Assembly: GCA_022710935.1 (NCBI GenBank)
Contig: JAKLFY010000031.1
Coordinates: 1,857-65,856, forward strand
Reading direction: 5' to 3'
DNA: 64,000 bases
DNA from: Verrucomicrobiota bacterium
Lineage (GTDB): Bacteria > Verrucomicrobiota > Verrucomicrobiia > Limisphaerales > J093
The stretch's first letter is position 1. Each line of letters starts with the position of its first letter. The notes under the pieces are model-generated. The model was not told where the DNA came from. It did not search any database and saw only the letters and a program-made list of their open reading frames with translations. The translations under genes were made by a program, and so were the position numbers. Of the stretch, positions 26,594-45,845 are shown in pieces.

Positions 26594-26693
26594 GCTGATC
26601 TCTCCTTCCACAGTCCGTCCCGCAGCCGCTCATGCGCGTCCACGTGCGTCAGGCCTGCGGACTGGACTTGACGATCAACCTGGCACGTCAAGA

Positions 26694-26760
26694 ACCATGT
26701 TTCCTCTCCGATTCGTGTGATTCGTGTGATTCGTGGTTGGCGCTCGGCGATACCGGCCAA
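26694..26760. repeat. half copy of the CACGAAT hairpin element
   Basis: CCGATTCGTGTGATTCGTGTGATTCGTGGTTGGCGCTCGGCGATACCGGCCAAC matches the right arm and flank of the 41012-41575 units. Confidence 0.7.
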
Positions 26761-26809: not shown

Positions 26810-29800
26810 CTACTGCCGCACCAAGATCGTACGGTACCACAGGAAGGGTGCCGTGTTGGTAATGGTCAGGAGCCCGCTGTGTGGTCCACCCGGCAGGTCG
26901 GTCCAAATCGCATCCGGTCTAAGAGACTCGGAGTACTGAACAAAGGTGTCGTACCCGGGCCGTTGCACGACAAAGAGATGCACCGTTGGCGACGAGCCGC
27001 TGTAAACGAGGCTCATAACGATCGGCGGTCCCATGACTTCGATGCCCACAGATGCCCAGTCATTGGATGGATTCACATCGGTCGACGGCGTGTCGACATT
27101 GCCCATGGCCATGAGGCTGCCATACACGTTCGGGACAACCGTGATGGTCACTGTGGCGCTCGTGCCTCCCCCCAAGTCGCCCAACTCGCAGACCACGACG
27201 CCGCCGGCCAGGGTGCATTCGCCCTGACTCGAAGTCGCGCTGACAAACGTCGTGTTTGCCGGCACAGGACTCTTGACCGTGACGCCCCGGGCGACCGAAA
27301 GACGCGTGTTCGCCACCCTGAACTCGATCGCAAGGTTGCCGCCGCCGGCGACCGGGTTTGGCACGGCACGCCCGAGAATCAGGACGTCCACCGGCGCAAC
27401 GACCGTGATCTTGAAGAACTGCGGAGGACTGGTGTCTACGCCGCCATTGGCGGTGCCGCCATCGTCTTGGAGGAGTACGGCCACGGTCGCTTCACCCACA
27501 GCGGTGTCGTGGGCTTGATAGGTGAGAGTGCCATCGGCACTGACTGCGGGCTGGACGGCAAAGATGCCTTCGTAGTCATTGTTCACGACAAAGTGGATCT
27601 GCTGTGTCGCCTCGTTCGCCGGCCCTGCGCGTATGCCGGTCGCCCAGCCGGCTATCGACTGCGGCCCGGCGCCCTGGGTTGAGACCTGGTTGGGTCCCTT
27701 CGTGAAGGCTGGCGCGTCGTTCACCGGCAACACCGTGATGGTGAACGTTTGCGGAGCGCTGGTGTCCACACCGCCGTTCGCCGTCCCGCCGTCGTCTTTC
27801 AAGAGCACGGTGACGGTCGCACTCCCGTGCGCATCAGGCGCCGGGGTGAAGCTCAGAGTTCCATCCGCAGAGAGCGTTGGCTCGGCAAAGAACAGGCTGC
27901 TGTTGTCGTTGGTGACCTCGAACGTCAGAACCTGAGCCGATTCCTCGGGAGGTCCGGACTGAATGTCAGTCGCCCAAGCTGCAAGGCTCACCGTGCCACT
28001 GTCTTCATTGACTGTCTGGTCAGGACCCTTGGTGAATGTGGGCTGGTGGTTAGCGGGGCTCAAGAGATTGAAGGTTGCCGTGACCGACTTTGCGGCGTCC
28101 ATTGTCACGACACGTTCGGTCTCTCCGGCGCCATCGCCAGTCCAGCCGTCGAACGTCGAGTTGGGGTCCGCTTGAGCCGTAAGCGTCACCAGCGCGCCGG
28201 TCGGAAACTCCGCGGAGCAAGTGCCGCCGCAGTCAATGCCCGCGGGCTGACTTGTCACGCGGCCAGTCCCGCTGCCGTTCTTTTCTACGATGAGGGCTGC
28301 GTTTGCTGTGGCGGAGAAGGTGATCTGCAGCCACTGGGAGAACTCGGACGTATTGCCCAGCGGATCGGTGGCCGTTGCCGTCACGTAGCGGTCCAAGTAA
28401 TACAATGAACCGGGATACGGTCTTGACAGCTCGAACTCCGCAACCCCGGTTGAATCCGTCTCGGTTGCGAGGGATTCAAAACTCTCTTCGCCTTGGCCAT
28501 ACCCCGAAGGGTCTCCGCTTTCTCCCACGAAAAACTCGATTGTGAATGCGGTGCCGGGGGCACTATTGAGAGTCCCCCCGATGGTAAGATTCGTATTCGA
28601 GTCCCAGGACCTTGTCAGAACTGGATAGTTCTGCAGCAGATTGGCACCGACGTCGCTGTCATTCGCATCGTTGGCGGTCGGTCCTGCGCCGCCCAGGTCA
28701 ATTCCCAACTCACGGTTGTTTGCGAGGCTGTTGCCTCGCATCGCGTTCCGGTCCCCCGAGTAAATGCGCACGCCAGTTCCACGATTGTCAAATATCTTGT
28801 TGGCGGTGAATCTGTTCTGGCTTGCTGAGTTGGTTACAACAATGCCCGAGCCTTCGTTTCCACCAGGATCGAACCCGCCATAGTATCCCCCAATGTCGTT
28901 CCCCACGACGACGTTGTTGGTTGAGAGCACACCGTCGATCACCACACCATGAGCTGCGTTATATGCGATGATGTTCCCCGTGTTGTAATTGGTCGAGCCA
29001 ATGGTGTTGTGCGAAGAGTCAAGAAGGTAAACTCCAACAGTGTTCCCCAGCTCCCACGTCTCGGTGTCCCCGATCGTATATCGGCTTATGCTGTTGCCTC
29101 TTGCTCCCTCGAGGAAGATGCCGTGGTGGTGGCTGGAAATGAGGCCGCCAGCCGAGAACGACCCGCCCACCGTGTTCGTTTGCGCCCGCGAGAGAAGAAT
29201 CCCGGCCCCCCAGTTGCCCAGCGGTCGCTCACCGTTCGCGTCTGTGCCAATCAGATTCGCCTCGATCGAGTTGAAGGCAACACCATCACCGCGAAGCACC
29301 ACACCATCCCCGAAGTTCCCGGCAATGATGTTCACGTCACTCCACGTCTCACCTCCGACCCGATTGTATTGGGCCTGTTGCGCGGCCGAAGCCTGTATAC
29401 AAATGCCACCCGACGAGTTTCCCAACCCCTCGAAGCCGGGACTCTCGGCATCCGTCGAACCAGTTGCATCCGTTCCAATATAGTTGCCGACGATGGTGCA
29501 CCGACTCGAGTTCTCCAAGGCCACACCGTACCCCAAATTGGCGGAAATGACATTTGGCGGATAGCCGTAACGGCCGATGGTCACCAGGCTGGTGTCTTTG
29601 ACGCGAATGCCATCGCCCTGGTTGCCCGCCGCCTCGGTACCGGTGAGGTCCGTCCCAATATAGTTCCCGTAGATTTCACCCTGGCTGCTTCCCCAAGGGC
29701 TCGGCAATACCAGGATCCCGTGCCGAGGCGATCTACTGAGCACGAGCCCTGCGACCCTGAAAGAGAGACACTCGAAAGTCAGCAGGCCAGCGTTCTCATC

Positions 29801-30115
29801 CAAGTAGTCCAGTCCACTTCCGTCGAGTTCCACGATCGGGTCGCCTGCGTAACCCGGCTGAGATGTTCCGTCGACCGTCACATTCGCCTTGATGTTCGGC
29901 AGGCGCGTGAACAGACGGATGGATTGCGGCCCAGAGTCGATATGGAACAGTATCCGCGGGTACTCCATGTCTGCGTTCGCATCGAGAATGGCCTGCCGCA
30001 GGGAACCGGGGCCCTCGTCATCGGTGGTTGTCACCGTGAAGACAGCAGGGTGGACGCGGGCGACGGCAAGGCACAGGCTAATGGCGATGAAGAGCGAACA
30101 GATCGGAGTCTTCAT
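26810..30115 (-). CDS. large secreted adhesin-like protein with parallel beta-helix repeats, an InlB-B-like repeat, two cadherin/Ig-like repeats and a DUF11-like repeat
   Basis: The signal is MKTPICSLFIAISLCLAVA, from the ATG at 30115. A GPGSLRQAILDAN (CSLREA-like) motif is followed by many beta-helix turns. Next are GSGTGRVTSQPAGIDCGGTC and two ~100-aa repeats ending TITVLPVNDAP and KITVVAP. An alternative in-frame ATG lies at 30187. Confidence 0.75.
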   Translation of the reverse strand: MKTPICSLFIAISLCLAVARVHPAVFTVTTTDDEGPGSLRQAILDANADMEYPRILFHIDSGPQSIRLFTRLPNIKANVTVDGTSQPGYAGDPIVELDGSGLDYLDENAGLLTFECLSFRVAGLVLSRSPRHGILVLPSPWGSSQGEIYGNYIGTDLTGTEAAGNQGDGIRVKDTSLVTIGRYGYPPNVISANLGYGVALENSSRCTIVGNYIGTDATGSTDAESPGFEGLGNSSGGICIQASAAQQAQYNRVGGETWSDVNIIAGNFGDGVVLRGDGVAFNSIEANLIGTDANGERPLGNWGAGILLSRAQTNTVGGSFSAGGLISSHHHGIFLEGARGNSISRYTIGDTETWELGNTVGVYLLDSSHNTIGSTNYNTGNIIAYNAAHGVVIDGVLSTNNVVVGNDIGGYYGGFDPGGNEGSGIVVTNSASQNRFTANKIFDNRGTGVRIYSGDRNAMRGNSLANNRELGIDLGGAGPTANDANDSDVGANLLQNYPVLTRSWDSNTNLTIGGTLNSAPGTAFTIEFFVGESGDPSGYGQGEESFESLATETDSTGVAEFELSRPYPGSLYYLDRYVTATATDPLGNTSEFSQWLQITFSATANAALIVEKNGSGTGRVTSQPAGIDCGGTCSAEFPTGALVTLTAQADPNSTFDGWTGDGAGETERVVTMDAAKSVTATFNLLSPANHQPTFTKGPDQTVNEDSGTVSLAAWATDIQSGPPEESAQVLTFEVTNDNSSLFFAEPTLSADGTLSFTPAPDAHGSATVTVLLKDDGGTANGGVDTSAPQTFTITVLPVNDAPAFTKGPNQVSTQGAGPQSIAGWATGIRAGPANEATQQIHFVVNNDYEGIFAVQPAVSADGTLTYQAHDTAVGEATVAVLLQDDGGTANGGVDTSPPQFFKITVVAPVDVLILGRAVPNPVAGGGNLAIEFRVANTRLSVARGVTVKSPVPANTTFVSATSSQGECTLAGGVVVCELGDLGGGTSATVTITVVPNVYGSLMAMGNVDTPSTDVNPSNDWASVGIEVMGPPIVMSLVYSGSSPTVHLFVVQRPGYDTFVQYSESLRPDAIWTDLPGGPHSGLLTITNTAPFLWYRTILVRQ

Positions 30116-30159
30116 GGAGATCTGCTTTCTGGTTTGGTTCTTCCGGGCAAGGTCCAAAC

Positions 30160-30234
30160 CCCGTGTGAGCTGTGTCGTGACACGCATACTTGCTCCTTGA
30201 GTGGAATGGCAAAGCGCCGACAGTTGTGACAGAG
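30160..30234 (-). promoter_or_regulatory. conserved upstream leader core, copy 1
   Basis: The block CTGTGTnGTGACACGCATnCT...GGAATGGCAAAGCG...TTGTGACAGAG is shared with 39520-39589 and 40808-40883. Each copy lies upstream of a minus-strand surface-protein ORF. Confidence 0.6.
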
Positions 30235-30251
30235 GTCGCGGACCAAAGGCA

Positions 30252-30368
30252 ATGGAAGAGGACGCGTCCAAGAGTGGCGGCAGCCCCGCGTTTCCGAACA
30301 CGCAGTGGACGGTCATCGTCGACGCCGTTTCCAGCAGACCGGAGCCGGTGCAGGAGGCGCCCACCTAG
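30252..30368 (+). pseudogene. 5' fragment (38 codons) of an ECF sigma factor gene, paralogous to 41660-42406
   Basis: It translates to MEEDASKSGGSPAFPNTQWTVIVDAVSSRPEPVQEAPT*. The intact gene reads MMEDDASKNGGSSAFPNTQWTVIVDAVSSHPERVREAL. The DNA is near-identical over about 90 nt and then diverges into a TAG. Confidence 0.8.
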
Positions 30369-30433
30369 ACCCGGAAATCCCACCCGCGGACCGTCAGGAA
30401 TGCCGCGACCGTCCCACTGGTGAGATTTCCGGG

Positions 30434-30464
30434 TTCGGCGAATCTGGTGGTGTATTCGCCCGAA
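30434..30464 (-). terminator. hairpin immediately 3' of the RHS gene stop (candidate terminator)
   Basis: TTCGGCGAAT (30434-30443) pairs with ATTCGCCCGAA (30454-30464) with one bulge around a 10-nt loop. No U-tract follows. Confidence 0.3.
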
Positions 30465-33400
30465 TCAACGCGACCGCCGTACGGCGCGGAAGTACCGCGC
30501 AGCGCTCGCCCCGAGGGTCACATCGAAGGTCTGGTACAGGTCGGGTTGGGTTGTTCGCAGTTCCTCCTGCCACGGGGCCGCGGGATCCAGCGAGGCGCAC
30601 GAGTGCACTTCGCAGTCCCAGCCTGGCCGCCCATAGAGCACTAACGCCGGAGACTGATCGGCGTCCAGCACAGCTTCGAGCAGCGGCTCTTCGCTGATGA
30701 TCACAACGCGCCCGGATTGTGGGGCGAAGTTGGCGACTTGATTCCCGTCGGTCGTCAACCCAACGGTATTGTCCAAGAGCAGGTCGACGAAGGCCGAGGA
30801 CTCGTTCGAGACAGCAGTAAAGTACAGCCAGGCAACCTGCTGCGTGCCGATCAGCCACTGGTTAGCGCACATTCTCATGCTCAACGATTGCAGCGAGTCG
30901 GTCAGCACCGTGATCGAGCTTTCACAGATCCCCGGAGTGACCGGCTCGAGTGTGAAGTCCGTCAGGCGGTCAGTGGGAGCCTCGACGGTCATCGAGAGGC
31001 TGGTGAGGGGCACTGTCGAGATGAGGTTCACCGGCACGCGTCCCCGGTTGCCCACCTCGAGCACCAACCGACCGAGGCTGGGCACCACACACTCGCCCAC
31101 GACAATCGTGAACACCCTGGCATCCATCAGATTCGGCCTGCCGGTATCTGCCACCCAGACCGTGATCGCATATGACCGGCTCGCCTGCGAACAGGCCGGG
31201 TTCCAGCGGAAAACACCGTTGGTCGGGTCGACAACCACGCCTGACGGTGCGCCCGCTCCGAGGCTGAATCGCCACTCACCCGAGGGCGTGCCCAGAACCG
31301 CGTTTGTGAACGTGACCGTTGCGCCCGGAAGCGTCGTTGAATCGAGAACCGATGACAGCACCGGCGCGGTGGCCGGAACGGTCGTTACAGCCTGCGGCGC
31401 GGCGGGAAGCGGCTCTTCCTGGCCGACGTTGTCGCGGGCGAGGCTGGTGAAGGCGTAGGTGTGGCCGGGTTCGCCGCGGAACCAGGCGCTGGTGGCGGTG
31501 GTCTGCGACAGCCAGAGGAACCGGTTCGTCCCGTTCTCCGTCACGCAGATGTCGAAGCTGGCGAGGCCGGAGCCGCCGGGATCGTCCTGGCCGGACCATT
31601 GCACGAGGAAGGTTGGGCCGGCCTCGGCCGGCAACGGCGCCACGGCGCTGACGGGCGCGGCGGCATCGAGGGTGTTGAAGACGAGCGGCGTGTCAATGGG
31701 GTCGTTGTAGTCAAACACGATGCGGGCGCGGTTCTCGACGCGCGTGCCGCTGGCCGCGCCGGAGTTCGCGCGGACAATGTAGCTGATGCTCCCGTCGCCG
31801 CGGCCGGTCCCGTCGTTGGGGTAGAGAAGACCGATCAACGGGTCTTCGGGATACCAGCCCGTGTTCGGGTCAATCGCGGTCAAGGTCAACGTGAGGAGGC
31901 GCGTGGGCATGTCGAGGTGCGCGTCCACCTCCACGAGGATGGCGTTGCTGGGCAGCAGTGCCAGCGCGGAAGCGCCATCGCCGAGCGGGATGAGGGTCTG
32001 GTTGGTGACGATGAAGGCCAGACTCTTCTGGTAGTGGTTGAGCCCAGGGGGAATGGCCAGGACCTGGTTGCCAAAGGCGATCTCGGTCAACTCGAACGTG
32101 CTGAGGTCGAGGTTCGGGTCGAGCATGTCTGTGACAACAACATGCTGCGCCGGGGCGGTGGCGCTGGGCTGGTTCTCGAACCGGATTTGATAGGCCAACG
32201 TGCCGTCCGCCGGCAGGTAGGCCGCACTGCCATATCCCGACGGCCCGAGTTTGTCGTTTGGGTCAGACGAGCGGGCAAGCGCGAAGGACCAGCAGCCGTT
32301 GATGGGTGTCGGTGTGGGGTCGGGGTTGAGGATGTCAAAGTAATCCTTGAGGTCCTTCAGAATGTCCCAGGCATCCTTCAGTTTCTCAGGTCGGTCGTGA
32401 ACATTGAAGAATTTGAAAAAGAGATCGAATGCCGCACGCCAGCTATTGTCACTTAAGAAGTCGGCGTTCCTTGCCCTTTCGTCAGCCGCAGCGTTGCGCT
32501 TCTCGTCGTCGTCGAAATTACGGATCATTTCCTCATGGCTTCGATGGAATCTGAGGTAATGTCGAAGCCAATCGCCAAATGGATCACTGTCTTCCCTCAA
32601 TCCACTCGGATCAGTGAGCATTACCGGACGGCTTCGCGTATACGCATACAGGTTGAGGCCGCCGAGTATATGCACAGGATCAGTCGTGTGAAATCTGCCA
32701 AGTGAGGGGGAATAGTCTCTCGCCCGCATGAACTCCAACCCGTTCCCCTCGTTCATCACGCCAAATTCGCCGACGAACTCGAACGGGTTCGGAAGCGTCT
32801 CGGCCTTCGTGAGCGACAGGCCGAACGGGTCGTAGGCGTAGGCGTTGGCCACCGCGCCGGACGGGCCGGTCAGTTCGCTGGTGTGGCCGATGGCGGAGAA
32901 GGTGTAGAAAGCCGGGTCGCCCGCGGCATCGCTGCGCGCGAGCAGACCGAAGCCGTGGTCGTAGCGAGCAATCAGGTTGCCGCCGCCGTCGTATTCGGCA
33001 GCCACGTTGCCTAGGCCGGTCGGGTCAATCACGTAGCGCGTAGTCTGGCCGTTGTGCGTTGTGGCGATGCGATTGCCAAAGGCGTCGTAGGCGTACGTCC
33101 AGGTGTCCGTGGGTGTGGTGACGCCGATGAGGCGATCCTCGATGTCGTATGTGTTGGTTGATGGTTGAGAGTTGATGGTTGAGAAGGTCAGGTTGCCGTC
33201 GAGGTCGTAAAGCAGCGTTTCGTCGCCAACCGAGGTGTATTGATTCAATGTGTTCGCGGCGTAATCAGTCGCGACGCCGTTGTCGGTGACCTGTGTGCGG
33301 TTGCCCGCGGAATCGTAGGCGTAGTTCACCACGCGGCCGTTTGGGTAGGTGACGCTGGTCAACTGGCCGAGCGAGTCGTGGCCGTAGGTTTCCGTGCCGG

Positions 33401-36400
33401 CGAGCGTGGTCATCGAGTCGCGGCGACCGGAGGCGTCGTAGGTGTAAACAAAGCTGGAGAGGACGGAGTTGTCCGCCTTGCGGTTGACGAGGGACACGAC
33501 CTGGCCGGCGGCGTTGTACTCGTACGTGGTGAAAACGCCGTTCCCGAGCGTCTTGCGGCTGAGCCGGCCGGCGGGGTCGTAGTCGTAGTCCACAACCAAC
33601 TGGCCGAGGCCGTTGGTCATGCGGTCAAGCCGGCCCAGTTCATCGTAGAGATACGCGGTGACTTGGCCATCCTGGTCCGCGCGGCGGGTACGGCGTCCGG
33701 CGGGGTCGTAATCGAAGGTGAAGAACCTGCCGCCGGGATATTGGATGCGGGTAAGGCGGTCGGTGAGTGGATCGTACTCCATTTCGATGGTTTGCTGGGA
33801 ACCAAGCAAACCGTCGAAATACGTGGCTGAACGCAAGTTCCCGGCGGAATCGTAGGCGTATGTGAAGTCGGTAATGCCAGGCGTGGTGGCGTAGTCCTTG
33901 GACGTGAGCTGACCAGCAGAATTGTAGGTGTAGGTGATAACGCCGCCTCGGCGGTTGGTGGACGTGATGACGCTGCCGTGCGCGTCGTAGGCGAACCGCT
34001 CCGCGGTGGCATCGGCGTAGGTGATGGCGGTGAGGTTGCCGCGATCGTCGTAGGCGTATTTGAGGTCGTTCCCGCGCGCGTCGCGGACCTGGGCGAGGCG
34101 GTTGAAGTTCGGCTCGTAAGTGAAGCTGTTGTTCTGGCGCAGCGGGTCTTCGATGCCGCTGAGGTTGCCAAAGCCGTCATAGCCGTAGCGGTAACGTTCG
34201 CCGCCCGGGCCGACAAGCTGGGTGAGTTGATCGAGGTCGTCGTAGGTGAAGTTGACGATCCGGCCCTCGCCGTCGCGCACCTGGGCCAGTTGCCCGCCGA
34301 GGCCGTAAAGGAGTTGCGTGGCGCGGCCCGTGGCATCGGTGACGGTGACCATGCCGGCGGAATCGTATGCGTAGTTGACTTGTTGCGCGCCGCCGCAGCA
34401 GTTCTGCGAGGTCTGGATCAGGCGGCCTTGCGCGTCGTAAACGAACGAGTCCTGGCTAAGATCGGGGTGGGTGACGTTGGCGAGCGCGTGGAGTCGCTGC
34501 GGAATGTCGTCAGTGTGATAAGCGTAAGTCGTAACGCGATTGCCGGGTGCGGTGACACGGATGAGGTGTTCGCCCGAGGCGTCGTATTCGTAGGTAGTGA
34601 CGCGGTCGTCGGCTGCGCCCGGGCCGAGCGGGTCGGTGATTTGCGCGAGGCGGCCTGATCCGTTGTATTGGAGGAGGAATTGTCTGCCGCTGGAGTGCGT
34701 GAGCGAAGTCAACTGCGAGCCGGTGTAGCCGCAGGTGATGCGATTGCCGTTGGGGTCTTCGACATATTCAAGGCGGCCGATGGGGCTGTTCGTGGCGAAC
34801 ACCCAGGCCGTCTTGTCGGCCTCGATGAGCCGGAACGTGCTGTTGGTAAGCAACATCACACCGGTGTCGCTGCCCGTGGCCACATACTGCCCGTAGCTGC
34901 TCCGGCCAAAGAAACGCTCGGCGCCACCCGGGCCGCGGACGGTCACGCCGTAATAGCTGATGAGCGTCTGCGCGTGGATCTCCCAATTGTGCGACCAACC
35001 GCGCCCGAGCGCGCCGAGGCGGTATCGCGAGAGGATGGGCTGGCCATACGTGCGGCGGAAAACGAGCGGGAAACCGGGCGAAGGCGCGGAAGCGTCCACA
35101 GCAGCAGCGAGGGTGCGGACAGGATTGAGCGCGGCGGCGGCTTGCAAGACCTCGAAATTGAACAACGGCGCCGGGTCGTTGGTCATCTGGCCCACCTTGG
35201 CCAGGTGGTTCAGGTTGTCGCCCATCATGACGACGTAGTTGGCCCAAAGCGGGCCGGCGGCTTTCACGAGGTTGGCCCAGACGGCGTCCCAGCCGGCGGC
35301 ATCGGCAGTCTCGGGCCGCGAGCGCGCTCGGAGATCTTCCCAGGGGACGCTGAAAAGCCGTTCCGTGCCGTTGGTCCAGTGGCCGCTTCCGAGGATACTT
35401 CGGTGGCCGTGGCTCGGGAAGAGGACTGCCCCTGGCACGCCGGGAGCCGGCGAAGGCCACTCGACAATCGTGGTATCGTCAGCGGTAACGGTCCCCACGT
35501 TGAACTGAACCGGGTCCTGCCATTCCCCATGAAAGCCGGCGAAGTAGAACGGGACGCGCCCGCGCTCGCCCGGTTGGAGCCAGCCGGGAGTGGCGCTCGA
35601 TCCGACCGCGATGCCCTGAACCGAGTTGAGGGGGCGCGCTACGTTGAAAATGTAAGTCGGCGGGGCGGACAGCCTCCCGCCACCGCCTCCCCCACCCCCA
35701 CCCCCGCCTCCCACTGGGGGCGTCGGTGCGTAGCCCGGAATGGCCCTCCAGTTGACTCGGTGCGCGGTGACTGTGCTGTTTTCGTAGGCCGTCACCTTGA
35801 GCAATGGGACGGGCATGGGGCGAGTGCCCGTATTCGCGTATTCGACGTAGAGGGTCTGGCCGCCGCCGGGGCTCAGGGCGGTCCCCACGAGACGGGCTTC
35901 GAATTTCGCCTCGCCGCCGGACACAACGGTGAGCGCGTTGGTCAGGACTCGGGTTGCGGCACCCTTGGTGACCCACACGCTGTACGTGCCCGCGCTCATT
36001 GATCCGGTGTTGAAAAAGAGCTGGAGTTGCGTGGCACCCACAAGCTCGGTGCGGTTTGGAACGTGCCGAGTGCCCGACGTTTTCACCAACTCCACCGTCA
36101 TGGTTTCATCGAAACCCACACCCGACAACGCGGCGGAGGGGAGGGTCTTGTCCAAGACCGACACCCACCAGTGAGAGCTTTCGTCGCCGGGGATGACGGT
36201 CGGGCTGATGCCATTCACATAGAACGGCGCGGTTTCGGCGCTGAGGCTGTAGGTGCCGTCGCCGAGTTGCTCGGCGGAAACGAGCACGTAGTACGCGGCT
36301 CCACCGGGGACTCCCGTTAGCTCAATGGTCTGATTTGGTGACAGCTCGCGCGCGCTGTAATCGCTGTCTTGCCTGCTCGGGATGGAGGCGACGCTGGCGA

Positions 36401-39392
36401 AGAGATGGTTGACGCCAGACGAGCTCGTGAGGTTGAGGCGCAGGCTTTCGCCAGCCGGAACCTGGATGGCGTAGTAGTGCAGGCGGCTCGCCCCGGTGAA
36501 CGTGCCGGAAATGGGGCCTCCGTTCGCTGTGAAGGTCCGGTAAGCGATGGTCAACGGATCGGACGCGGCCGTGTTGTTGGCTTCTTCACTCTCGATGGCC
36601 GCATTGCCGAGGTCCGCGCGGACGATCACATGGTATCTGCCTGGCAAAAGGCCGGGCGCGTTGAAGGTCGTCGAAGCCAAATAGACCTCGTTCGTGGCGA
36701 GTCCGCCTGGATGGTTGACGGTGGCGACACGAACATCCGTGATATTCCAAAACGGGTCGGCCGAGACATACACAGCATCGGTCCAACTGCCAAGGAGGGC
36801 CGTCCCGAGCACGTTGCGTCCCTCCCACGACACACTGACGGCGTCGCCCGCCCAGAATTCCTGCATGTCGCAAACCACGTTGGTGACCTCCAGGTCCACG
36901 GGAACAAGGTTGAAGGTGACCGATCGCGAATTGATGATGTCGAGCGAATTGCCGGCGAGGTCCGCGACGTTCGTACTGAATGCCACGCGATAGAGCCCGA
37001 CGGCGGTTTGCGATGGGAACGTGACCCGCCAACGATTGAGGCCAACCTCCTGAATGCCGCTGACGGACACCGCCTGCCCGAGGGTGTTGGTGAGCCGCAC
37101 ATTGGCGGGAATCAAGGTGGCGCTGTCCATCTGTTCACTGAACCAGACGTCCACCGAGGTGATAGTGCCCGCGATGTCGCCGGGCGGAGTGTGTTGCGTG
37201 ACGCGCGGCGGTACGGTGTCGAGGATGAGGGTAAAGCTGAAGGCATCGTCCGTCTCACCGGGAATACCGTTGGCGTTTTGGTCGAGTTGATAGCCATCGG
37301 CGTCAAGCAAAGTCGGCAGCAGGGTGAAGTGATATGCGCCTTGGTCGGTCTGTGGAGCGAAACCAAAGCGATAGAGTCGGTCGCCAACTTCGGAGATCCC
37401 AGTGGGGACAATCTCCCCCAGCGGTCCGACGATGACCAGTTTGTCCATCGTGAACGAGTTCATGGCGATGGCTTGGTTGAAGTGGATAGCGATGCTATCA
37501 CGGAAGGAGCGGGGGAGCGGGAATACATAGTCGTTGGTGGGGTACACAAGCACTCGCCCCGGCAATGAGAAGCGGGCATGAGTGCGTGGTGCGCCCGGAT
37601 ACAAATGGACCGTGCCCGCACCGCCCGGGGTAGTGGCATTGAGGCCGCCCGAGGCCGCGATTTTCGCGAGACCAAACCCCGCGGTGTCCGTGGCATACAC
37701 CGCAATGCGCCCACCCCCGCCACCACCATAGCCGGAGAGGGCACTGTTACCCCCATCTGCCCGGATGATCCCTCCCCCCGTCAAACCGCCCACGCGGACA
37801 TAGATCGCACCGCCGGCCCCGCCGCTCCCATCCCGGTCGGCTCCGTTGGCCAGCAATTGTCCCTCCAAATCCAATGCCGCCGCCGTTAACCGAACGAGCC
37901 CACCCCCTGGACCGTATCCGCTGCCACTGCCCCAGTCCTCCGGATCGGCATAATCCCCATAGACGGGTAGCACGGTGGGGCTGGGTGCGATGGCCATGCC
38001 GCCCAGACCCCCATGACTCCCACCACTATAAAACGCCGAAGCCGGGGCCGGCACATTCCCCACCGTCCGCCCCGCCACATACCCCCGCCCACTCACGTCA
38101 ATCCGGCTCATCGCATCCACCACCACCGCCCCCGTGACGTTGATCTCCAGCTTGTGCGTGTTCGTCTCCGTGCAGGGCAAATGCGTCAACACTGAGTAAT
38201 TGCTCAGCGTCAGCGCCGGCGCCACCAACCGCTCGGTCGTAAACGTGCCGCCGCCAATCGTCACCGGCGCCGTCGAGGTCACCGAGCCACTGAATATCAT
38301 CGAGCTGTTCGTCCCCAACACCAGCGGCGTCGTTCCTCCCAGCAGCGCATCCTCCAATTCCAAACGTGCTCCTCCACTCACCTCCACCCCGCCCGCAAAC
38401 TCGACCACCATCCCCGGATGCTCCGGCTTCACCTGCGTCTGTGCCCCCCGAATCACCACCCCATCCGCAATCACGAAGGTGTTCGTCCCCGCCACCCCCA
38501 ACGGCGTCCAACCGTTGCCCCCACTCCCCGCGTCAATCATCAACGTGCCCACCGCCTCGTCGGTGTCCCGCACATACACCGTGCCCGCACCGCCCGGAAA
38601 GCGCGGACTTGCCGCCCCCGCCGCGCTCAAGTTCCCAAGGTTGAATTGAGAATGCTCCGCGGCATACACTGCAATCCGACCGCCGCCTCCCCCCCCGTAG
38701 TTGTTCGAGTAGACGCTCGTCCCACCTTTGGCCTGCATCGTGCCGTTGCCTGTCAAAGCGTTCACCGCGACACGAATCCCGCCCCCCGCTCCGCCGCTGC
38801 CATCGGCATTGCTGCCGTTGGCCAGGAGTTGTCCCTGTAGTTCCAGCGAACCCGCAACAAGACGAATCAACCCACCGCCCGACACGTACCCGCTTCCGCT
38901 GCCCCATTCCTGCGGGTCGGCGTAGGTCCCATACACAGCCAAAGGCGTTGAACTACCTGCAATCCAAGCACCCAACCCGCCATAGCTGCCCCCGCTGTGA
39001 AACGCCGACGCCGGCGCCGGCACATTCCCCACCGTCCGCCCCGCCAGGTACCCCTTCCCGCTCACGTCGATGCGGCTGTCGGCTGAAATGGCGATCTGGT
39101 CGCTGATCGTCAGATCGAGTTTGTGTGTTTCGCTGACGGTGCAGGGCGAGTGGGTGAGGACAGCGCCGTTGGTCAGGAGCAGCGAATTGAAGAGGTGCAG
39201 CCCGTCGACGGTCACCGTGACGGGGCCGTCGATCACGATGTCTTGGTCATCGTAAGTCGTGTCAGTTTCGGAAATGGTGATGTTGCTGGTGAATGTGGCG
39301 GCGGTGGCCAAGTTCACCGCGAAACCAACTGCGAAACATGCCAGGCGAAGCAGAACCAGCCTGCCTCTTCTTGCCGTACGATGATGGGTCAT
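30465..39392 (-). CDS. giant secreted RHS/YD-repeat protein (2975 aa) with duplicated Gly-rich beta-helix modules and an atypical long post-core tail
   Basis: The ATG at 39392 is preceded by GGAGGAGGG. The signal is LVLLRLACFAVGFAVNLATA. Two paralogous beta-helix modules come first, then Ig-like, CARDB-like and PPC-like segments and a G12 tract. The RHS region starts near GRGWSHNW, carries dozens of YD repeats (YAYDSAGN, YTYDASGR, ...) and ends with the core motif PVMLTDPSGL at 32598-32612. Confidence 0.9.
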   Translation of the reverse strand: MTHHRTARRGRLVLLRLACFAVGFAVNLATAATFTSNITISETDTTYDDQDIVIDGPVTVTVDGLHLFNSLLLTNGAVLTHSPCTVSETHKLDLTISDQIAISADSRIDVSGKGYLAGRTVGNVPAPASAFHSGGSYGGLGAWIAGSSTPLAVYGTYADPQEWGSGSGYVSGGGLIRLVAGSLELQGQLLANGSNADGSGGAGGGIRVAVNALTGNGTMQAKGGTSVYSNNYGGGGGGRIAVYAAEHSQFNLGNLSAAGAASPRFPGGAGTVYVRDTDEAVGTLMIDAGSGGNGWTPLGVAGTNTFVIADGVVIRGAQTQVKPEHPGMVVEFAGGVEVSGGARLELEDALLGGTTPLVLGTNSSMIFSGSVTSTAPVTIGGGTFTTERLVAPALTLSNYSVLTHLPCTETNTHKLEINVTGAVVVDAMSRIDVSGRGYVAGRTVGNVPAPASAFYSGGSHGGLGGMAIAPSPTVLPVYGDYADPEDWGSGSGYGPGGGLVRLTAAALDLEGQLLANGADRDGSGGAGGAIYVRVGGLTGGGIIRADGGNSALSGYGGGGGGRIAVYATDTAGFGLAKIAASGGLNATTPGGAGTVHLYPGAPRTHARFSLPGRVLVYPTNDYVFPLPRSFRDSIAIHFNQAIAMNSFTMDKLVIVGPLGEIVPTGISEVGDRLYRFGFAPQTDQGAYHFTLLPTLLDADGYQLDQNANGIPGETDDAFSFTLILDTVPPRVTQHTPPGDIAGTITSVDVWFSEQMDSATLIPANVRLTNTLGQAVSVSGIQEVGLNRWRVTFPSQTAVGLYRVAFSTNVADLAGNSLDIINSRSVTFNLVPVDLEVTNVVCDMQEFWAGDAVSVSWEGRNVLGTALLGSWTDAVYVSADPFWNITDVRVATVNHPGGLATNEVYLASTTFNAPGLLPGRYHVIVRADLGNAAIESEEANNTAASDPLTIAYRTFTANGGPISGTFTGASRLHYYAIQVPAGESLRLNLTSSSGVNHLFASVASIPSRQDSDYSARELSPNQTIELTGVPGGAAYYVLVSAEQLGDGTYSLSAETAPFYVNGISPTVIPGDESSHWWVSVLDKTLPSAALSGVGFDETMTVELVKTSGTRHVPNRTELVGATQLQLFFNTGSMSAGTYSVWVTKGAATRVLTNALTVVSGGEAKFEARLVGTALSPGGGQTLYVEYANTGTRPMPVPLLKVTAYENSTVTAHRVNWRAIPGYAPTPPVGGGGGGGGGGGGRLSAPPTYIFNVARPLNSVQGIAVGSSATPGWLQPGERGRVPFYFAGFHGEWQDPVQFNVGTVTADDTTIVEWPSPAPGVPGAVLFPSHGHRSILGSGHWTNGTERLFSVPWEDLRARSRPETADAAGWDAVWANLVKAAGPLWANYVVMMGDNLNHLAKVGQMTNDPAPLFNFEVLQAAAALNPVRTLAAAVDASAPSPGFPLVFRRTYGQPILSRYRLGALGRGWSHNWEIHAQTLISYYGVTVRGPGGAERFFGRSSYGQYVATGSDTGVMLLTNSTFRLIEADKTAWVFATNSPIGRLEYVEDPNGNRITCGYTGSQLTSLTHSSGRQFLLQYNGSGRLAQITDPLGPGAADDRVTTYEYDASGEHLIRVTAPGNRVTTYAYHTDDIPQRLHALANVTHPDLSQDSFVYDAQGRLIQTSQNCCGGAQQVNYAYDSAGMVTVTDATGRATQLLYGLGGQLAQVRDGEGRIVNFTYDDLDQLTQLVGPGGERYRYGYDGFGNLSGIEDPLRQNNSFTYEPNFNRLAQVRDARGNDLKYAYDDRGNLTAITYADATAERFAYDAHGSVITSTNRRGGVITYTYNSAGQLTSKDYATTPGITDFTYAYDSAGNLRSATYFDGLLGSQQTIEMEYDPLTDRLTRIQYPGGRFFTFDYDPAGRRTRRADQDGQVTAYLYDELGRLDRMTNGLGQLVVDYDYDPAGRLSRKTLGNGVFTTYEYNAAGQVVSLVNRKADNSVLSSFVYTYDASGRRDSMTTLAGTETYGHDSLGQLTSVTYPNGRVVNYAYDSAGNRTQVTDNGVATDYAANTLNQYTSVGDETLLYDLDGNLTFSTINSQPSTNTYDIEDRLIGVTTPTDTWTYAYDAFGNRIATTHNGQTTRYVIDPTGLGNVAAEYDGGGNLIARYDHGFGLLARSDAAGDPAFYTFSAIGHTSELTGPSGAVANAYAYDPFGLSLTKAETLPNPFEFVGEFGVMNEGNGLEFMRARDYSPSLGRFHTTDPVHILGGLNLYAYTRSRPVMLTDPSGLREDSDPFGDWLRHYLRFHRSHEEMIRNFDDDEKRNAAADERARNADFLSDNSWRAAFDLFFKFFNVHDRPEKLKDAWDILKDLKDYFDILNPDPTPTPINGCWSFALARSSDPNDKLGPSGYGSAAYLPADGTLAYQIRFENQPSATAPAQHVVVTDMLDPNLDLSTFELTEIAFGNQVLAIPPGLNHYQKSLAFIVTNQTLIPLGDGASALALLPSNAILVEVDAHLDMPTRLLTLTLTAIDPNTGWYPEDPLIGLLYPNDGTGRGDGSISYIVRANSGAASGTRVENRARIVFDYNDPIDTPLVFNTLDAAAPVSAVAPLPAEAGPTFLVQWSGQDDPGGSGLASFDICVTENGTNRFLWLSQTTATSAWFRGEPGHTYAFTSLARDNVGQEEPLPAAPQAVTTVPATAPVLSSVLDSTTLPGATVTFTNAVLGTPSGEWRFSLGAGAPSGVVVDPTNGVFRWNPACSQASRSYAITVWVADTGRPNLMDARVFTIVVGECVVPSLGRLVLEVGNRGRVPVNLISTVPLTSLSMTVEAPTDRLTDFTLEPVTPGICESSITVLTDSLQSLSMRMCANQWLIGTQQVAWLYFTAVSNESSAFVDLLLDNTVGLTTDGNQVANFAPQSGRVVIISEEPLLEAVLDADQSPALVLYGRPGWDCEVHSCASLDPAAPWQEELRTTQPDLYQTFDVTLGASAARYFRAVRRSR

Positions 39393-39697
39393 TTCCCTCC
39401 TCCTTCTCCGGCGTGTGCCCCGGCCGGTTTGTTTGCAGGTGACACGGGGATCTGGGGTGGTGCGCATTCGGTCAGCCCTTGCCCGGGTTTTCGCCCAAAT
39501 GCGTTGAGGTCCAACTCCCGACCGCGCTGTGTTGTGACACGCATGCTCTCCAACGCTGAAATGGCAAAGCGGGGAGGATTGTGACAGAGGCGCAGGTCCA
39601 GGACATTCGTCGTTGTCGCCTGAGCTCCGACCGAGACGTCCGTGGTCTGGGCCGTCTCAAACGACAGCTTGAGTTTCAGGCGCGGGATGTCTAACGA
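39393..39697 (-). promoter_or_regulatory. duplicated divergent intergenic/leader region, copy 2
   Basis: It aligns with 40693-40900 (leader) and 41560-41647 (sigma-proximal part ending TCTAACG). It abuts the truncated paralog at 39691-39697. Confidence 0.65.
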
Positions 39698-40365
39698 ATC
39701 AGCCCCCCGCCTGGAGCCCCTCCTGCATAGGGTCCGCTGCCGCTTCCCCATTCGTTAGGTTTCGCGTAATCCCCGTAGACCGCGTTGGCCGGCTGATCCG
39801 AAGACCAGGAAGCCCCCAATCCCCCATAGCTGGCGCCGCTATTATATTGTGCCGCCCCGTTGGTCGTGTTGCCTGTGGTCCGCCCCGCGATGTACCCTTT
39901 CCCACTCACGTCAATCCGGCTGTCAGTCGAAACCACGATGGCGTTGGTGACGGTCAGGTCCAGCTTGTGCGTGCTCGTCTCCGTGCATGGCGAGTGCGTG
40001 AGCACCGCGCCATCGGTGAGGAGCAGGGAATTGAAGGCGTGCGGGCCGTCCATCGCCACCGTCACGCCCGCGCCGGAGATGACGAGATCCAGACCGTCAT
40101 AGCTGGTGTTCGACTCGCTGAGGGTCAGGCTGCTCGTGATCCAGGTTTGGGCGGAGGCGGGGAGCGTGGCCGCGAAGAGGCACACAAGGCACAAAACGGG
40201 CCAAGCAGCGAACCGCGGATGGCGCGGATGGTCTCCAGCCTGAATCCGCGGCCATCCGGGAAATCCGTGGTTGCCTGGCGTTCTGGCCGCGGACCGGAAT
40301 GTCCGCGCTCCTTCAAGGGCTTCGTGCGGATTCGTGTTCATAGGGGGTTCTCGTTGGGCGGTCAT
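39691..40365 (-). pseudogene. truncated paralog (224 aa) of the RHS protein N-terminal beta-helix module
   Basis: TWITSSLTLSESNTSYDGLDLVISG...THSPCTETSTHKLDLTV...SRIDVSGKGYIAGRT...GGGLIR* parallels RHS residues TFTSNITISETDTTYDDQDIVIDG...GGGLIRLVAG. The stop codon is created at the junction with leader copy 2. Confidence 0.6.
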
Positions 40366-40573
40366 TGAGTTCTTTGCGGCAGAAGATCAGGTCCGGGTTT
40401 CGCTTTTCGATTCAGGGTGTCCTTGGCTGGATGAGGTTGAACCCCACGGAATTCACACACGCTCTGCCGGCGAGGAGCGTCGAGGGAGCGTCTGTCGGCT
40501 GTCGGATGACTGGCGGCTCGACAGGCAGAAGGATGGCGCGTAGAGTGACGGCATGAGCGCTGAAACCGCCCAA

Positions 40574-40693
40574 TTATTGGCGGCCTTCGAGGCGTTGCCC
40601 ACCCAGGAACAACAAGTGTTCGTGAAGGAGTGAATGAGGCGAATATCCCACCGACATCAGCCAGCCTCTTCTCGCCCCATGATCATGACTCAT
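40574..40693 (-). pseudogene. remnant of the RHS-gene 5' end (about 12 homologous codons) behind leader copy 3
   Basis: MSHDHGARRGWLM... compares with MTHHRTARRGRLV... in the RHS gene. The ATG at 40693 has the same GAAGGAGGA-type RBS context. Homology is lost near 40655. Confidence 0.4.
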
Positions 40694-40900
40694 TTTCGTC
40701 CTCCTTCGCCGGCCAGCGTCCCGGCCGGTCTGTTGCACAGGGCACGGGGATCTGAGGTGGCGTCTGTTCGGTTAGACCCATGCTCCGTTTCTGGACCCAA
40801 TGCTAAACCCCGTGCGCGCTGTGTAATGACACGCATGCTTGCTCCGTGAGTGGAATGGCAAAGCGGAGACAATTGTGACAGAGATCGAGGGCCAGACCCA
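40693..40900 (-). promoter_or_regulatory. duplicated leader region, copy 3 (core 40808-40883)
   Basis: It is collinear with 39393-39600 with scattered substitutions and 1-nt indels. Confidence 0.65.
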
Positions 40901-40952
40901 AGAGTCGCGGGCCACCTTGAAACCCGAGACATGAGAGAACCAAGACGCCGTG

Positions 40953-40998
40953 AGCTCGGATTTCTGGGGCTCAATCCCGGTGGTGAGAAATCCGAGCT
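40953..40998. repeat. perfect 13-bp stem hairpin (AGCTCGGATTTCT / AGAAATCCGAGCT)
   Basis: The arms at 40953-40965 and 40986-40998 are exact reverse complements around a 20-nt loop. Confidence 0.7.
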
Positions 40999-41011
40999 GG
41001 GCGGCGTCGCT

Positions 41012-41575
41012 GTGACCACCAATCACGCGAATCACACGAATCATGGTTCCCCTCCAATTCGTGTGATTCGTGGTTGGCGCCTGACGGTGCGGGCCAAACG
41101 TGAGGCCATCTGTTCCTGCCTCGAACCACGGTCGCGGCGTGCGGCAGCGGGTCCGCCGCAACACCCTGACCGAGAGTCCACCGGAGGGGATTGTCCGAGT
41201 CTGACGCAGCCGATTGTGCTCTGCTCGTTGAACTGCCCAGGAGAGGGAGTGACCACGAATGACACCAATCACACGAATCATGGTCCCCCTCCAATTCGTG
41301 TGATTCGTGTGATTCGTTGGCGCCTGACGGTGCGGGCCAAACGTGAGGCTCTCTGTTCCTGTCTCGAACCACGGTCGAAGCGTGTGACACACGGTCTGCG
41401 GGAACACCCTGACCGGGAGTCCACCGGAGGGGATTGTCCGAGTCTGACGCAGCCGATTGTGCTCTGCTCGTTGAATCGTCCAGGAGAGGGAGTGACCACG
41501 AATGACACCAATCACACGAATCATGGTTCCCCTCGAATTCGTGTCATTCGTGTGATTCGTGGTTGGCGCCTGGTG
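41012..41575. repeat. tandem array (about 2.3 copies, period 237-243 bp) of a unit carrying a 14-bp-stem CACGAAT hairpin
   Basis: The anchor GTGACCACSAAT recurs at 41012, 41249 and 41492. The first hairpin has CGAATCACACGAAT (41028-41041) pairing with ATTCGTGTGATTCG (41057-41070). The inter-hairpin sequence is also conserved between copies. Confidence 0.85.
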
Positions 41576-41659
41576 TCCGGTGCAGACATCCGTGGTTTGA
41601 GCCCTCTCAAACGGCGGCTTGAGTTCCGGGCAAGGGCTTTCTAACGTCGCACATACCTG

Positions 41660-42406
41660 ATGATGGAAGACGACGCGTCCAAGAATGGCGGCAGCTCCGC
41701 GTTTCCGAACACGCAGTGGACGGTCATCGTCGACGCCGTTTCCAGCCATCCGGAGCGGGTGCGCGAGGCGCTCGAAGGACTCTGTCGGGCCTACCGTCAG
41801 CCGATTGTCAATTGGTTCAAACGGAATGACTTTCGGCAGGATCCCGAAGACCTGGCTCAGGGGTTCCTGGCCTACATGCTCGAGAAAGGCCTCCTGACCA
41901 AGGTCGCGCCGCGGACGGGCCGATTCCGCTGTTTCCTCGCGGCGTGCATGCGCCGGTTTTTGCACGACAACTGGGACAAACAGAACGCGCAGAAGGCCGG
42001 AGGCGGCGTCCAACCGGTGCCCCTGGCCGACCACGACGCCGAGGCCGGCGCCGACACCCACACCGACAGCCAGCTCGATATCGACTTCGCCCTGGCCATT
42101 CACGGACAGGTCATGAGTCAACTGGCGCCCCGCGACGAACTGAAGCCCTACCTGTTTCAGAAGGACACGACCGAAGGATGGAATGACATCGCCGCCGCCC
42201 TCGGTACGACACCGACGGCGATTCGCCAGGAAGTATGCCGGCTGCGGCGACGGCACTGGGAGAAGTTTCGCGATGAAGTGGCTGAGATCGTCAGGCCGTC
42301 GGATCGAGCCGAGGAAACAAAGTACCTGTACGAACTGCTGTTCCGGAATCTGCCGGCCGAGGCGGGGGAACGGCATTGTCCCGGTGGATATGCCCCGGGA
42401 ACATGA
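41660..42406 (+). CDS. ECF-type sigma-70 family factor (kinase-associated, ECF43-like)
   Basis: FPNTQWTVIVDA...ALEGLCRAYRQPIVNWF...DLAQGFLAYML (region 2) and ...TPTAIRQEVCRLRRRHWEKFRDEV (region 4). It is paralogous to 49279-50115. A Ser/Thr kinase gene follows and there is no anti-sigma gene. Confidence 0.75.
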   Translation: MMEDDASKNGGSSAFPNTQWTVIVDAVSSHPERVREALEGLCRAYRQPIVNWFKRNDFRQDPEDLAQGFLAYMLEKGLLTKVAPRTGRFRCFLAACMRRFLHDNWDKQNAQKAGGGVQPVPLADHDAEAGADTHTDSQLDIDFALAIHGQVMSQLAPRDELKPYLFQKDTTEGWNDIAAALGTTPTAIRQEVCRLRRRHWEKFRDEVAEIVRPSDRAEETKYLYELLFRNLPAEAGERHCPGGYAPGT

Positions 42407-42626
42407 ACCTGCGCAGGCCGGATGTGCGGTGTCCTCATCGCAAGCGGCTGTTTCTGGCGACGAGGACGTCGCCACTCCTGACCGGTTTATGGGAGCGCCA
42501 GGCGCAGGAAGTCGGTCGGTCAGCGCCCGGCCGCCAGTCACAACCGAACTTGAACCTCCATCTACGGATTGGGCGAAGCGTGCGGGTGGATTGTGGACCA
42601 CCTGAGCGCTACTGCCTGGATCGACG

Positions 42627-45600: not shown

Positions 45601-45845
45601 TCCGCCTGTTCGACGCTCCAGGCCAGGCCCCTTTGCTCACGCTCGCCGTTGACCCCTGCGCCGCCAGCGGCGTCCGCTTCAATGCCGAGGGAACCCGGCT
45701 GGCCTGGGGCAACGCGGATGGGACGGTTACTGTTTGCCACCTCGATGAAATGGAGAACCGCCTGCGCGCTGCTAGCGCGCATTTCTCACCAGGTCTTGTA
45801 CAGCGCGAAGTCGATGTCATCGAGAGAGACAGCCATGCGCGCTAG
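42627..45845 (+). CDS. Ser/Thr protein kinase with one TM helix and extracytoplasmic WD40 beta-propeller repeats
   Basis: Hanks motifs GRGGMGVVY, VALK, HRDLKPGNILL, DFGLA and GTPAYASPE. The TM helix is ALGLMAFLVVLLSLAGLI. Many WD-like repeats follow (GTVTIWD, PVKLWD, EVGVWD, AARLWD). Confidence 0.9.
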   Translation: MPDQTQNRRIPYFGDFVLFDEVGRGGMGVVYDAQQSSLDRRVALKILHPDLSATDAARQRLRLEAEAAARLEHPHILPIYEVGEHDGRPYLAMQFVEGESLAQRIARLGSEIPEKEAATLLAKVARAVQHAHERGVLHRDLKPGNILLDQAGQPHLIDFGLARCVGQDSGLTRTGAFLGTPAYASPEQAAGQTQAVTTATDIYSLGAILYALLTGQPPFVGKSAAETIDNVRSADPVRPRSIRPSLARDLETICLKCIEKEPRRRYGSALALAEDLERFVEGRPILARPVKPLERLWMWTRRNPVHAALGLMAFLVVLLSLAGLIQRQHARAREIMHVRQSELLGQVQITRLTPHQAGWSQRAWTQAVEAAAIPTAMRSDDVRNQAAALLAGLDAHQIGEWANFSASSVLFDREGKRILIGCVDDRTRLLELAGENMQTSPLTNSGPMAFGENGAPLQLLFDASSRSLHVVDVLTGRPMREWAVPASIGADRAASNSPVDGRPLLAFTPDGSCAAGVFEGSDGRQHVASFLPGAVRSLLGLGASVSAVTISPDGSLAAAGESRGKVHVWSTHDASRIAEFSASRVEILSLALRRVARHRDSPEASASGTWLVAIGDAGGTVTIWDVESQTATAHCVGGHYHINAVAFSPDGATLASGGRGPVKLWDVGTGRLLLECQWGDYITDLAFSPDGACLAMSAENKNPPYPAGLAIWRLEPGRGIQTLRGLSGQVSKVCFSPDGRRCAALSHRWEVGVWDVAEDRLLRIFEAPVGQIADNASLAWSPDGEHLAFAGWQAARLWDIASGQTLRRWDERQLPPGLCDTLAFPDEEHLFLFRVETRDGKHPPLKSVADPKGHPRVCRLREILSSDHPTLIAEITDFSDHVKEVEAPPDGRCFVVEGKSVFGDENSAIMKCFDGRTGRELWSRDLRREECGVLAIDAAGKLLSFPQDPLGEASLVELQTGRALEVLDFFPWGIRAEPRLYAGNAFDRDRDIRLFDAPGQAPLLTLAVDPCAASGVRFNAEGTRLAWGNADGTVTVCHLDEMENRLRAASAHFSPGLVQREVDVIERDSHAR

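Follow-up and report, generated by a model that had tools for sequence, protein, structure and literature searches.

We analyzed a 64,000-nucleotide (nt) stretch of the Verrucomicrobiota contig JAKLFY010000031.1 (positions 1,857 to 65,856; assembly GCA_022710935.1), hereafter the window, whose numbering is used for all coordinates below and whose G+C content is 65%. We posit that its segment 30116-30368, lying directly upstream of an adhesin-like gene, is probably a partial and since decayed copy of the divergent control region that separates the gene for an extracytoplasmic function (ECF)-type sigma factor from an operon coding for surface proteins, in which a candidate promoter and a dead remnant (stump) of the sigma gene have been retained. 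As such, the block is a new example of known processes and not a new kind of system. Its features, and the intact gene from which the stump derives, are the following:

26810-30115, minus strand: adhesin-like gene coding for 1101 amino acids (aa), with a signal peptide and matches to right-handed beta-helix/NosD, Flg_new_2, Big_9 and DUF11 (Pfam)
30117-30151, minus strand: the adhesin gene's own 35-nt proximal upstream segment, 94% identical to positions 6635-6669 of the related contig L013
30156-30245, minus strand: leader core, copy A, with the candidate promoter and the first ~50 nt of a conserved block of the 5' untranslated region (UTR)
30204-30230, minus strand: candidate ECF-type promoter GTCACAACTGTCGGCGCTTTGCCATTC, an exact instance of the family motif, with a -35-like GTCACA and a -10-like TTGCCATTC
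30252-30368, plus strand: 5' fragment of the sigma gene, a pseudogene remnant with 38 codons and a TAG, homologous to sigma codons 1-36
30368-30435, no strand assigned: 68-nt palindromic repeat resembling repetitive extragenic palindromes (REP-like), abutting the broken end of the sigma fragment and present once in the window
41663-42406, plus strand: ECF-type sigma factor of 247 aa, counted from the second ATG

The duplication itself is directly observed. A preliminary description of this DNA had reported a leader core and a near-identical 5' end of the sigma gene in front of the adhesin gene, and BLAST comparisons within the window bear this out. The core of the leader in copy A (30156-30245) matches 40805-40894 in leader copy C at 86.7% over 90 nt (E 3e-26), and 30150-30235 matches 39507-39590 in leader copy B at 75.6% (E 5e-11); the corresponding positions 8848-8947 of L013 are 83% identical to the copy A core. 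On the strand opposite to the adhesin gene, 30252-30360 aligns with 41663-41771 at 91.7% over 109 nt (E 2e-40), with an exact 50-nt run, 30286-30335, in common. The translation of the fragment, MEEDASKSGGSPAFPNTQWTVIVDAVSSRPEPVQEAPT and then the stop codon TAG at 30366-30368, is as first given, and the count of 38 sigma codons holds for about 36 of them, codons 37-38 having already diverged. Two start sites had to be moved. The adhesin gene, implied to begin at 30116, has its ATG at 30115, in agreement with the signal peptide, the L013 orthologue and the gene call on the JGI contig Ga0116236_10041015 (L101). The sigma gene, placed at 41660, begins at the second ATG, 41663, since most of its 61 homologues have 233 aa and start with MExxS (alignment of 25); the true start is hence exactly the first base of the copy. 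A mechanical list of open reading frames (ORFs) extends the adhesin frame by 83 codons (26810-30364, minus strand), up to the GTG at 30364 and so across both the leader and the sigma stump.

The stump is what demonstrates that the duplicated block originated in the divergent region between the sigma and surface-protein genes, as had been proposed. As a copy of that region the block is incomplete: it consists of the leader core alone, cleanly joined at ~30250-30252 to the sigma start codon, and lacks the 92-nt sigma-proximal upstream block (counterpart 41555-41646) with its sigma70-like promoter, the 660-bp repeat array (counterpart 40895-41554) and the distal ~115 nt of the 5' UTR. Seven bases past the end of the sigma homology at 30360, the 68-nt palindromic repeat begins. 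With 92% identity to the window's own sigma gene, against 84% to that of L013 and 84-90% to that of another relative, L017, the fragment is nearest to its neighbor, which favors a local duplication followed by decay.

The remainder of the locus between the adhesin and sigma genes holds further copies of the same parts:

30465-39392, minus strand: RHS/YD-repeat surface protein of 2975 aa (Pfam RHS_repeat, DUF6531, Big_5, CARDB and DUF7619)
39393-39590, minus strand: leader copy B, a full 5' UTR with the motif at 39559-39585, 72-76% identical to copy C and L013
39605-39696, plus strand: copy B of the sigma-proximal upstream block, 77% identical to 41555-41646
39691-40365, minus strand: 224-aa ORF, paralogous to residues 5-162 of a 686-aa protein of L013 and to the RHS N-terminus (tblastn 58%)
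40574-40693, minus strand: truncated stub of 39 codons, in agreement with the beginning of the L013 686-aa gene for the first 12 (MSHDHGARRGWL) and divergent thereafter
40694-40894, minus strand: leader copy C, a 5' UTR with the motif at 40853-40879
41012-41572, no strand assigned: 243-bp unit in ~2.3 tandem copies (BLAST 89.5% between copies), between leader C and the promoter of the sigma gene
41555-41646, plus strand: sigma-proximal upstream block with a sigma70-like TTGAGT-N17-TAACGT, the -10 of which ends 15 nt before the sigma ATG

Leader copy B is joined almost directly to the 77% copy of the 92-nt sigma-proximal block, in which the sigma70-like promoter has degenerated to TTGAGT-N17-TAACGA. 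This adjacency suggests that the ancestral intergenic region comprised the leader and the sigma-proximal block. Downstream, toward the sigma gene, the order is leader C, the 660-bp insert of 243-bp repeats, the 92-nt block and intact sigma; positions 8695-9008 of L013 match 40656-40961 at 82%. The locus holds three incomplete units, each patterned on the series surface gene, leader, sigma upstream region and sigma 5' end, and the adhesin gene, the RHS gene and the truncated stub have one control element in common, as the preliminary description held. The 224-aa ORF, without a Pfam match, is probably a pseudogene piece of unit C. A 26-aa ORF at 40554-40634 was considered as an antitoxin remnant and set aside, finding no support in Pfam. 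The last 545 aa of the RHS protein contain only DUF7619 and Ig-like domains, with no C-terminal toxin domain recognisable by Pfam, and in the 349 nt downstream of the gene, which are taken up by the hairpin repeat, the sigma stump and the leader, there is no ORF of a size suited to an immunity protein; rather than a polymorphic toxin, the product may be a surface protein with YD repeats.

The history of the adhesin gene is illuminated by the sister genome L013 (GCA_040766265.1), the sigma factor of which is 90% identical. There, reading back from the adhesin orthologue (82-88% DNA identity), the 686-aa gene lies 38 nt upstream and is preceded by a single leader, a REP element, a toxin-antitoxin pair, the sigma-proximal block and sigma. 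RHS residues 1-651 (tblastn 62%), the 224-aa ORF and the first 12 stub codons all align collinearly with the 686-aa protein, and window positions 30117-30151 correspond to the L013 gap between the 686-aa gene and the adhesin gene. In this arrangement the adhesin gene was already under the leader as the second gene of an operon, whereas in the window the first position is taken by a 9-kb RHS gene with a strong hairpin at its end, and a separate promoter copy precedes the adhesin gene. Hence, the term "promoter capture" used at first is an overstatement, even as the origin of the block and the shared control stand as first described and the adhesin gene does possess its own promoter copy here: it seems to have gained no new regulator, the old one having probably been kept or regained after rearrangement.

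The order in which these rearrangements occurred can be read in more than one way. Instead of a local duplication, ~11 kb comprising the RHS gene, leader B, the pseudogene pieces and leader C with the sigma 5' end might have been imported by recombination in the sigma 5' region, whether of the Campbell type or anchored by homology, with the incoming sigma 5' end restoring the gene and the resident one being left as the stump 30252-30360. Consistent with such an import, direct repeats of leader core plus sigma 5' end enclose 10.4 kb of otherwise unique DNA, the two sigma 5' copies differ by 8% and not by 0%, and REP-like repeats lie at the break points. A similar pattern recurs in L017 (2356-4542) and in the independent contig L102 of a metagenome-assembled genome (GCA_040774365.1; 7933-9480), both of which carry another sigma stump, made up of 305 nt of sigma upstream sequence, with the sigma-proximal block, and 80 codons and 92% identical to an intact copy 1 kb downstream; the two sigma copies flank a 1-kb toxin-antitoxin insert with a 73-aa ORF and a PIN_2 toxin gene. 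Nevertheless, no integrase or transposase was found in the 11 kb, the fragment is closer to the window sigma than to those of L013 or L017, and its differences from sigma, mostly derived-looking and non-synonymous, are those of decay following a local duplication. We therefore consider the import possible but rather unlikely, and prefer the local duplication.

The intergenic space next to the sigma gene has received other DNA as well. In L013, a UPF0175/DUF3368 pair is inserted at the same intergenic site, and this sigma-proximal space appears to be an insertion hot spot, in which insertions that cut into the sigma gene would survive only where its 5' end is duplicated. The repeats found here are of two sorts. 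Each copy of the 243-bp unit carries a palindromic GTGATTCGTG(TGATTCGTG) element, and a further copy of the repeat occupies 26689-26760, immediately beyond the stop codon of the adhesin gene. The GTGATTCGTG element is also present in L013 and L017, and several public contigs end there. The 68-nt repeat beside the stump shows, in sludge and digester metagenomes, a depth of 600-1400 against 23-27 for its flanks (~25-50x) and is bordered by many different sequences; on the minus strand it is predicted to fold at -40 kcal/mol into a strong hairpin 30 nt past the RHS stop codon. Two side observations concern related contigs. After the sigma gene, L017 jumps to the equivalent of window position 44745, most of the kinase gene being missing from the contig. 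The ERZ795055 contig L010 (1-2578) codes for an identical sigma protein and has different DNA to the left of window position 41480, with a GH172 gene and a small gene pair, one member of which has a faint RHH_1 match; its junction lies inside the repeat element and represents either a strain variant or a chimera.

The proposal that the block contains a promoter rests on a bipartite motif. Across the loci of sigma homologues, deep conservation in the leader is confined to GTCACA-N15-CCATTY (orientation as in the surface gene). Four matches occur in the window against 0.38 expected: 30204-30230, 39559-39585 and 40853-40879 on the minus strand, and 42537-42563 on the plus strand, the last with one mismatch and 63 nt upstream of the ATG of a kinase gene that follows sigma. 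The motif of copy A ends 88 nt upstream of the adhesin ATG. In the loci of relatives there are 19 matches in 103 kb against 0.08 expected. All 23 distinct instances are 27 nt long; their spacer sequence is not conserved, and the information content is concentrated in both halves, with conserved positions yy-GTCACAa and TTgCCATTy. Every instance points toward the next gene, at a distance of 22-168 nt from the start codon, and the genes behind it code either for signal-peptide proteins of the divergent cluster or for the kinase right after the sigma stop codon. The motif is found in this sigma-kinase gap in the window, L013, L014 (10715-10741), L016, L097 (6714-6740) and L100 (6715-6741). It is present in every examinable locus of the sigma family with 55-100% identity and in none of ~75 loci of sigma homologues with 30-37% identity. 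A scan of genome contigs for the leader core returned only two chance matches (Campylobacter and a chlamydia). Given the fixed spacing, the orientation and the co-occurrence with the sigma family, we infer that the motif is the target promoter of the adjacent kinase-linked ECF sigma family. The tie of the block to the neighboring ECF/kinase module, which had been suggested at the outset, is thereby backed by comparison, the motif occurring only beside this sigma family and facing the downstream gene.

A comparable promoter has been demonstrated experimentally for ECF41 factors, TGTCACA-n16-CGTC (Wecke et al. 2012, PMC3426412). Like that promoter, the motif described here is bipartite, keeps a fixed spacing, has almost the same -35 element (GTCACA, often after T or C) and lies before genes adjoining the sigma gene. 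It differs in that its -10-like half is TTGCCATTY and not CGTC, that the associated sigma factor is kinase-linked and lacks the C-terminal extension of the ECF41 type, and that the motif precedes the kinase and secreted-protein genes and not sigma itself. The converse reading, an autoregulatory promoter of sigma on the plus strand (GGAAT-N17-TGTGA), was rejected: in relatives the orientation of the motif follows the next gene, including the plus-strand kinase gene, and insertions part the motif from sigma and leave it beside the surface gene.

The link between the motif and this sigma factor is one of co-occurrence, and the window has a second kinase-sigma pair, such that the motif might be the site of another regulator or the promoter of another alternative sigma factor, for instance the second ECF sigma at 49279-50115. 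We deem this improbable, as the motif accompanies the first sigma family in L014, L097 and L100, none of which has a second sigma gene nearby, and as a fixed spacing with a free spacer resembles a promoter and not a typical dimeric operator. The second pair (46219-50115, plus strand) consists of a Ser/Thr kinase gene (1019 aa) followed without a gap by an ECF-type sigma gene (278 aa), so that the order of kinase and sigma is reversed relative to the first pair; the TIGR02937 matches of the second sigma factor are below the cut-off.

The shared leader could also act chiefly as RNA, in the form of a cis-regulatory element of the 5' UTR or an upstream ORF, in place of a promoter. In line with this, copies A, B and C and L013 have a second block in common, (A/G)CATGCGTGTCAYNACACAGC, which holds a small hairpin and an ATG that opens an ORF of ~50 codons; in B, C and L013 the end of this ORF overlaps the main start codon as ATGA. 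This conserved ATG lies 14-16 nt past the motif (30185-30187, 39543-39545 and 40835-40837, minus strand; ~8883-8885 in L013). In copy A this ORF continues in frame into the adhesin gene. Open frames of ~50 codons are not unusual at 65% G+C. Against an action as RNA, Rfam yields no match at the gathering threshold across the whole window and none at E <= 1 in 29900-30700, and the alignment fold of four 5' UTRs has one compensatory pair and a positive covariation term, amounting to essentially no covariation. Moreover, the second block is missing in more distant relatives that retain the bipartite motif, the peptide of the upstream ORF is poorly conserved, and the distance from motif to start codon ranges over 22-168 nt. 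Taken together, these points render an RNA-level role quite improbable, and we continue to regard the bipartite motif as a candidate promoter.

The promoter of the sigma gene itself appears to be of a different kind. In 11 of 11 loci, the distance from the end of a sigma70-like TTGnnn-N17/18-TAnnnT to the sigma ATG is 11-15 nt, and the sigma-specific motif does not occur upstream of sigma in the sense orientation; a general scan for the sigma70 consensus is uninformative in DNA of 65% G+C. The spacing implies that the sigma mRNA would be near-leaderless and made by the housekeeping polymerase, and the kinase, not sigma, appears to be the target of feedback. The kinase gene is the next in the same direction:

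42627-45845, plus strand: protein kinase of the Ser/Thr type, 1072 aa, that includes a WD40 beta-propeller (Pfam matches to Pkinase, 1.6e-49, and to several families of WD40)

The gene immediately 3' of sigma codes for Pkinase+WD40 in the window, L013, L014, L016, L097, L099 and L100. The PF07638 match of sigma, together with N_methyl/DUF1559 neighbors in relatives, may hint at the PVC group. Several kinase-linked ECF groups have been described, namely ECF43, ECF59-62, ECF217, ECF267 and ECF283, in which control of ECF activity by the kinase has been proposed (PMC7826278, PMC8999054). The present sigma resembles these in that a gene for a Hanks-type kinase, in this case bearing a WD40 propeller, immediately follows the sigma gene, an arrangement kept by every relative examined; the Pfam matches of the neighboring genes included no anti-sigma domain, although no systematic search for one was made. 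In ECF43, region 2.2 is without the acidic DAED motif and a phospho-acceptor (phospho-threonine) takes the place of the missing charge (PMC8999054). In contrast, region 2.2 of the present family retains a conserved acidic D-P-E-D-L, in which D64 is invariant, and as the DPED is kept, the phospho-threonine mechanism of ECF43 need not apply.

These observations are consistent with a circuit in which sigma is likely to be made constitutively, with its activity set by the kinase, and in which active sigma would turn on the kinase gene and the neighboring genes for secreted proteins. RNA polymerase carrying this sigma factor would start a few bases past the motif at 30204-30230 and proceed into the adhesin gene, and the same element ahead of the RHS gene, the stub and the kinase gene would provide for their common switching. 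The adhesin gene's own copy of the promoter would keep it inducible with the rest of the sigma regulon despite the 9-kb RHS gene and the hairpin that precede it.

Several points weigh against this reading. The sigma factor is a borderline case by the thresholds of Pfam and NCBIfam, with 21.0 bits for PF07638 against a cut-off of 21.1 and NCBIfam matches far below their cut-offs. The -10-like half of the motif, CCATTY, is unlike the usual CGTC of ECF promoters. The hairpin at 30368-30435 is without a T-tract, and a scan for the terminator consensus found none, such a scan being uninformative at 65% G+C. Finally, RNA-labelled sequencing runs over 20 kb offer a few 151-nt read-contigs that carry no strand information, and one of these (30083-30233) crosses the motif; if derived from RNA, it would point to read-through from upstream and not to initiation at the motif, but it may also be carry-over of DNA.

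The sigma stump is very probably a silent, non-functional fossil that marks the source of the copy, as judged by the missing promoter and by the nature of its codon changes. It reaches no further than the N-terminal extension and the beginning of region 2.1 before the stop codon, and, ending so early in region 2.1, it cannot be a sigma factor. Upstream of it in copy A the sigma70-like promoter is absent. All eight codon differences from sigma are non-synonymous, although none synonymous out of eight departs only weakly from the neutral expectation, and most of the eight are derived on the side of the fragment, as assessed by eye on aligned homologues and not by a computed reconstruction. Segmental duplications and insertions leave scars of this sort, such as the partial copies of target genes at the ends of genomic islands and the displaced orphan pieces in Rhs loci. 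The present case resembles them in having a decaying, truncated direct repeat of a gene end beyond accessory DNA, with the intact gene kept. It differs from them in that it is the 5' end and the promoter that are repeated, in that no integrase is present, and in that the repeated piece comes with a probably functional candidate promoter for the gene on the opposite strand.

One might still envisage that the 38-codon ORF is expressed and functional, its product being a short N-terminal piece of sigma that carries the invariant FPxTQWT and, as a free peptide, would serve as a decoy toward the kinase or another partner of sigma. The copy does begin exactly at the true sigma start codon, its central 50 nt, encoding AFPNTQWTVIVDAVSS, are identical to the gene, and the T-x-W residues are invariant across the family. 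However, the ORF is without a promoter of its own, every difference from sigma is non-synonymous, no such fragment exists in L013, and the counterpart in L017/L102 has another length and another out-of-frame tail, all of which makes a functional peptide highly improbable.

The junction is no artefact of assembly. L101 is identical to the window over 30116-30348, and Logan contigs from eight metagenome runs, which belong to several studies, cover 29600-30315, 30306-30410 and 30382 onward as a tiling path with single-copy depth, one run providing a single contig that spans 29942-30411. The NCBI contig DAOTDJ010000011.1 (GCA_035453585.1) is identical to the window over 31660-52406; its start, near window position 30271 and inside the fragment as extrapolated from L003 coordinates, would be a repeat-induced break. 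A chimera formed via the common 50-nt exact repeat, as the start of DAOTDJ010000011.1 at ~30271 (again from L003 coordinates) and the Logan contig ends at 30315/30335 might hint, has next to no probability, given that 3 and 6 diagnostic differences from sigma mark the two flanks of the repeat as those of copy A, that L101 extends to 30348 and one X5 contig covers 29942-30411 with zero differences, and that the depth is single-copy in all runs.

At the level of the locus, the stump constitutes a clear, dated scar, which shows the multiplication of a promoter inside a surface-protein locus; no general principle is altered by these findings. More speculatively, and with considerable doubt, we raise the proposal that the sigma-divergent promoter space is a recurrent landing site for cargo, so far surface-protein/RHS genes and toxin-antitoxin modules, at which additions duplicate the sigma 5' end and/or the promoter, leave sigma intact and arrive pre-wired. 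If true, this would amount to the growth of a regulon by accretion of cassettes, with new surface genes being born inside the kinase-sigma regulon. To our knowledge, no target promoters or regulons are known for the kinase-linked ECF sigma factors of uncultured bacteria from wastewater and digesters. If confirmed, the bipartite motif would be the promoter signature of one kinase-linked ECF family and would define the first regulon for that family, made up of secreted and surface proteins together with its own kinase. It would also reveal an unusual wiring, in which the sigma gene has a promoter of the housekeeping type and the kinase gene is the target of the sigma factor.

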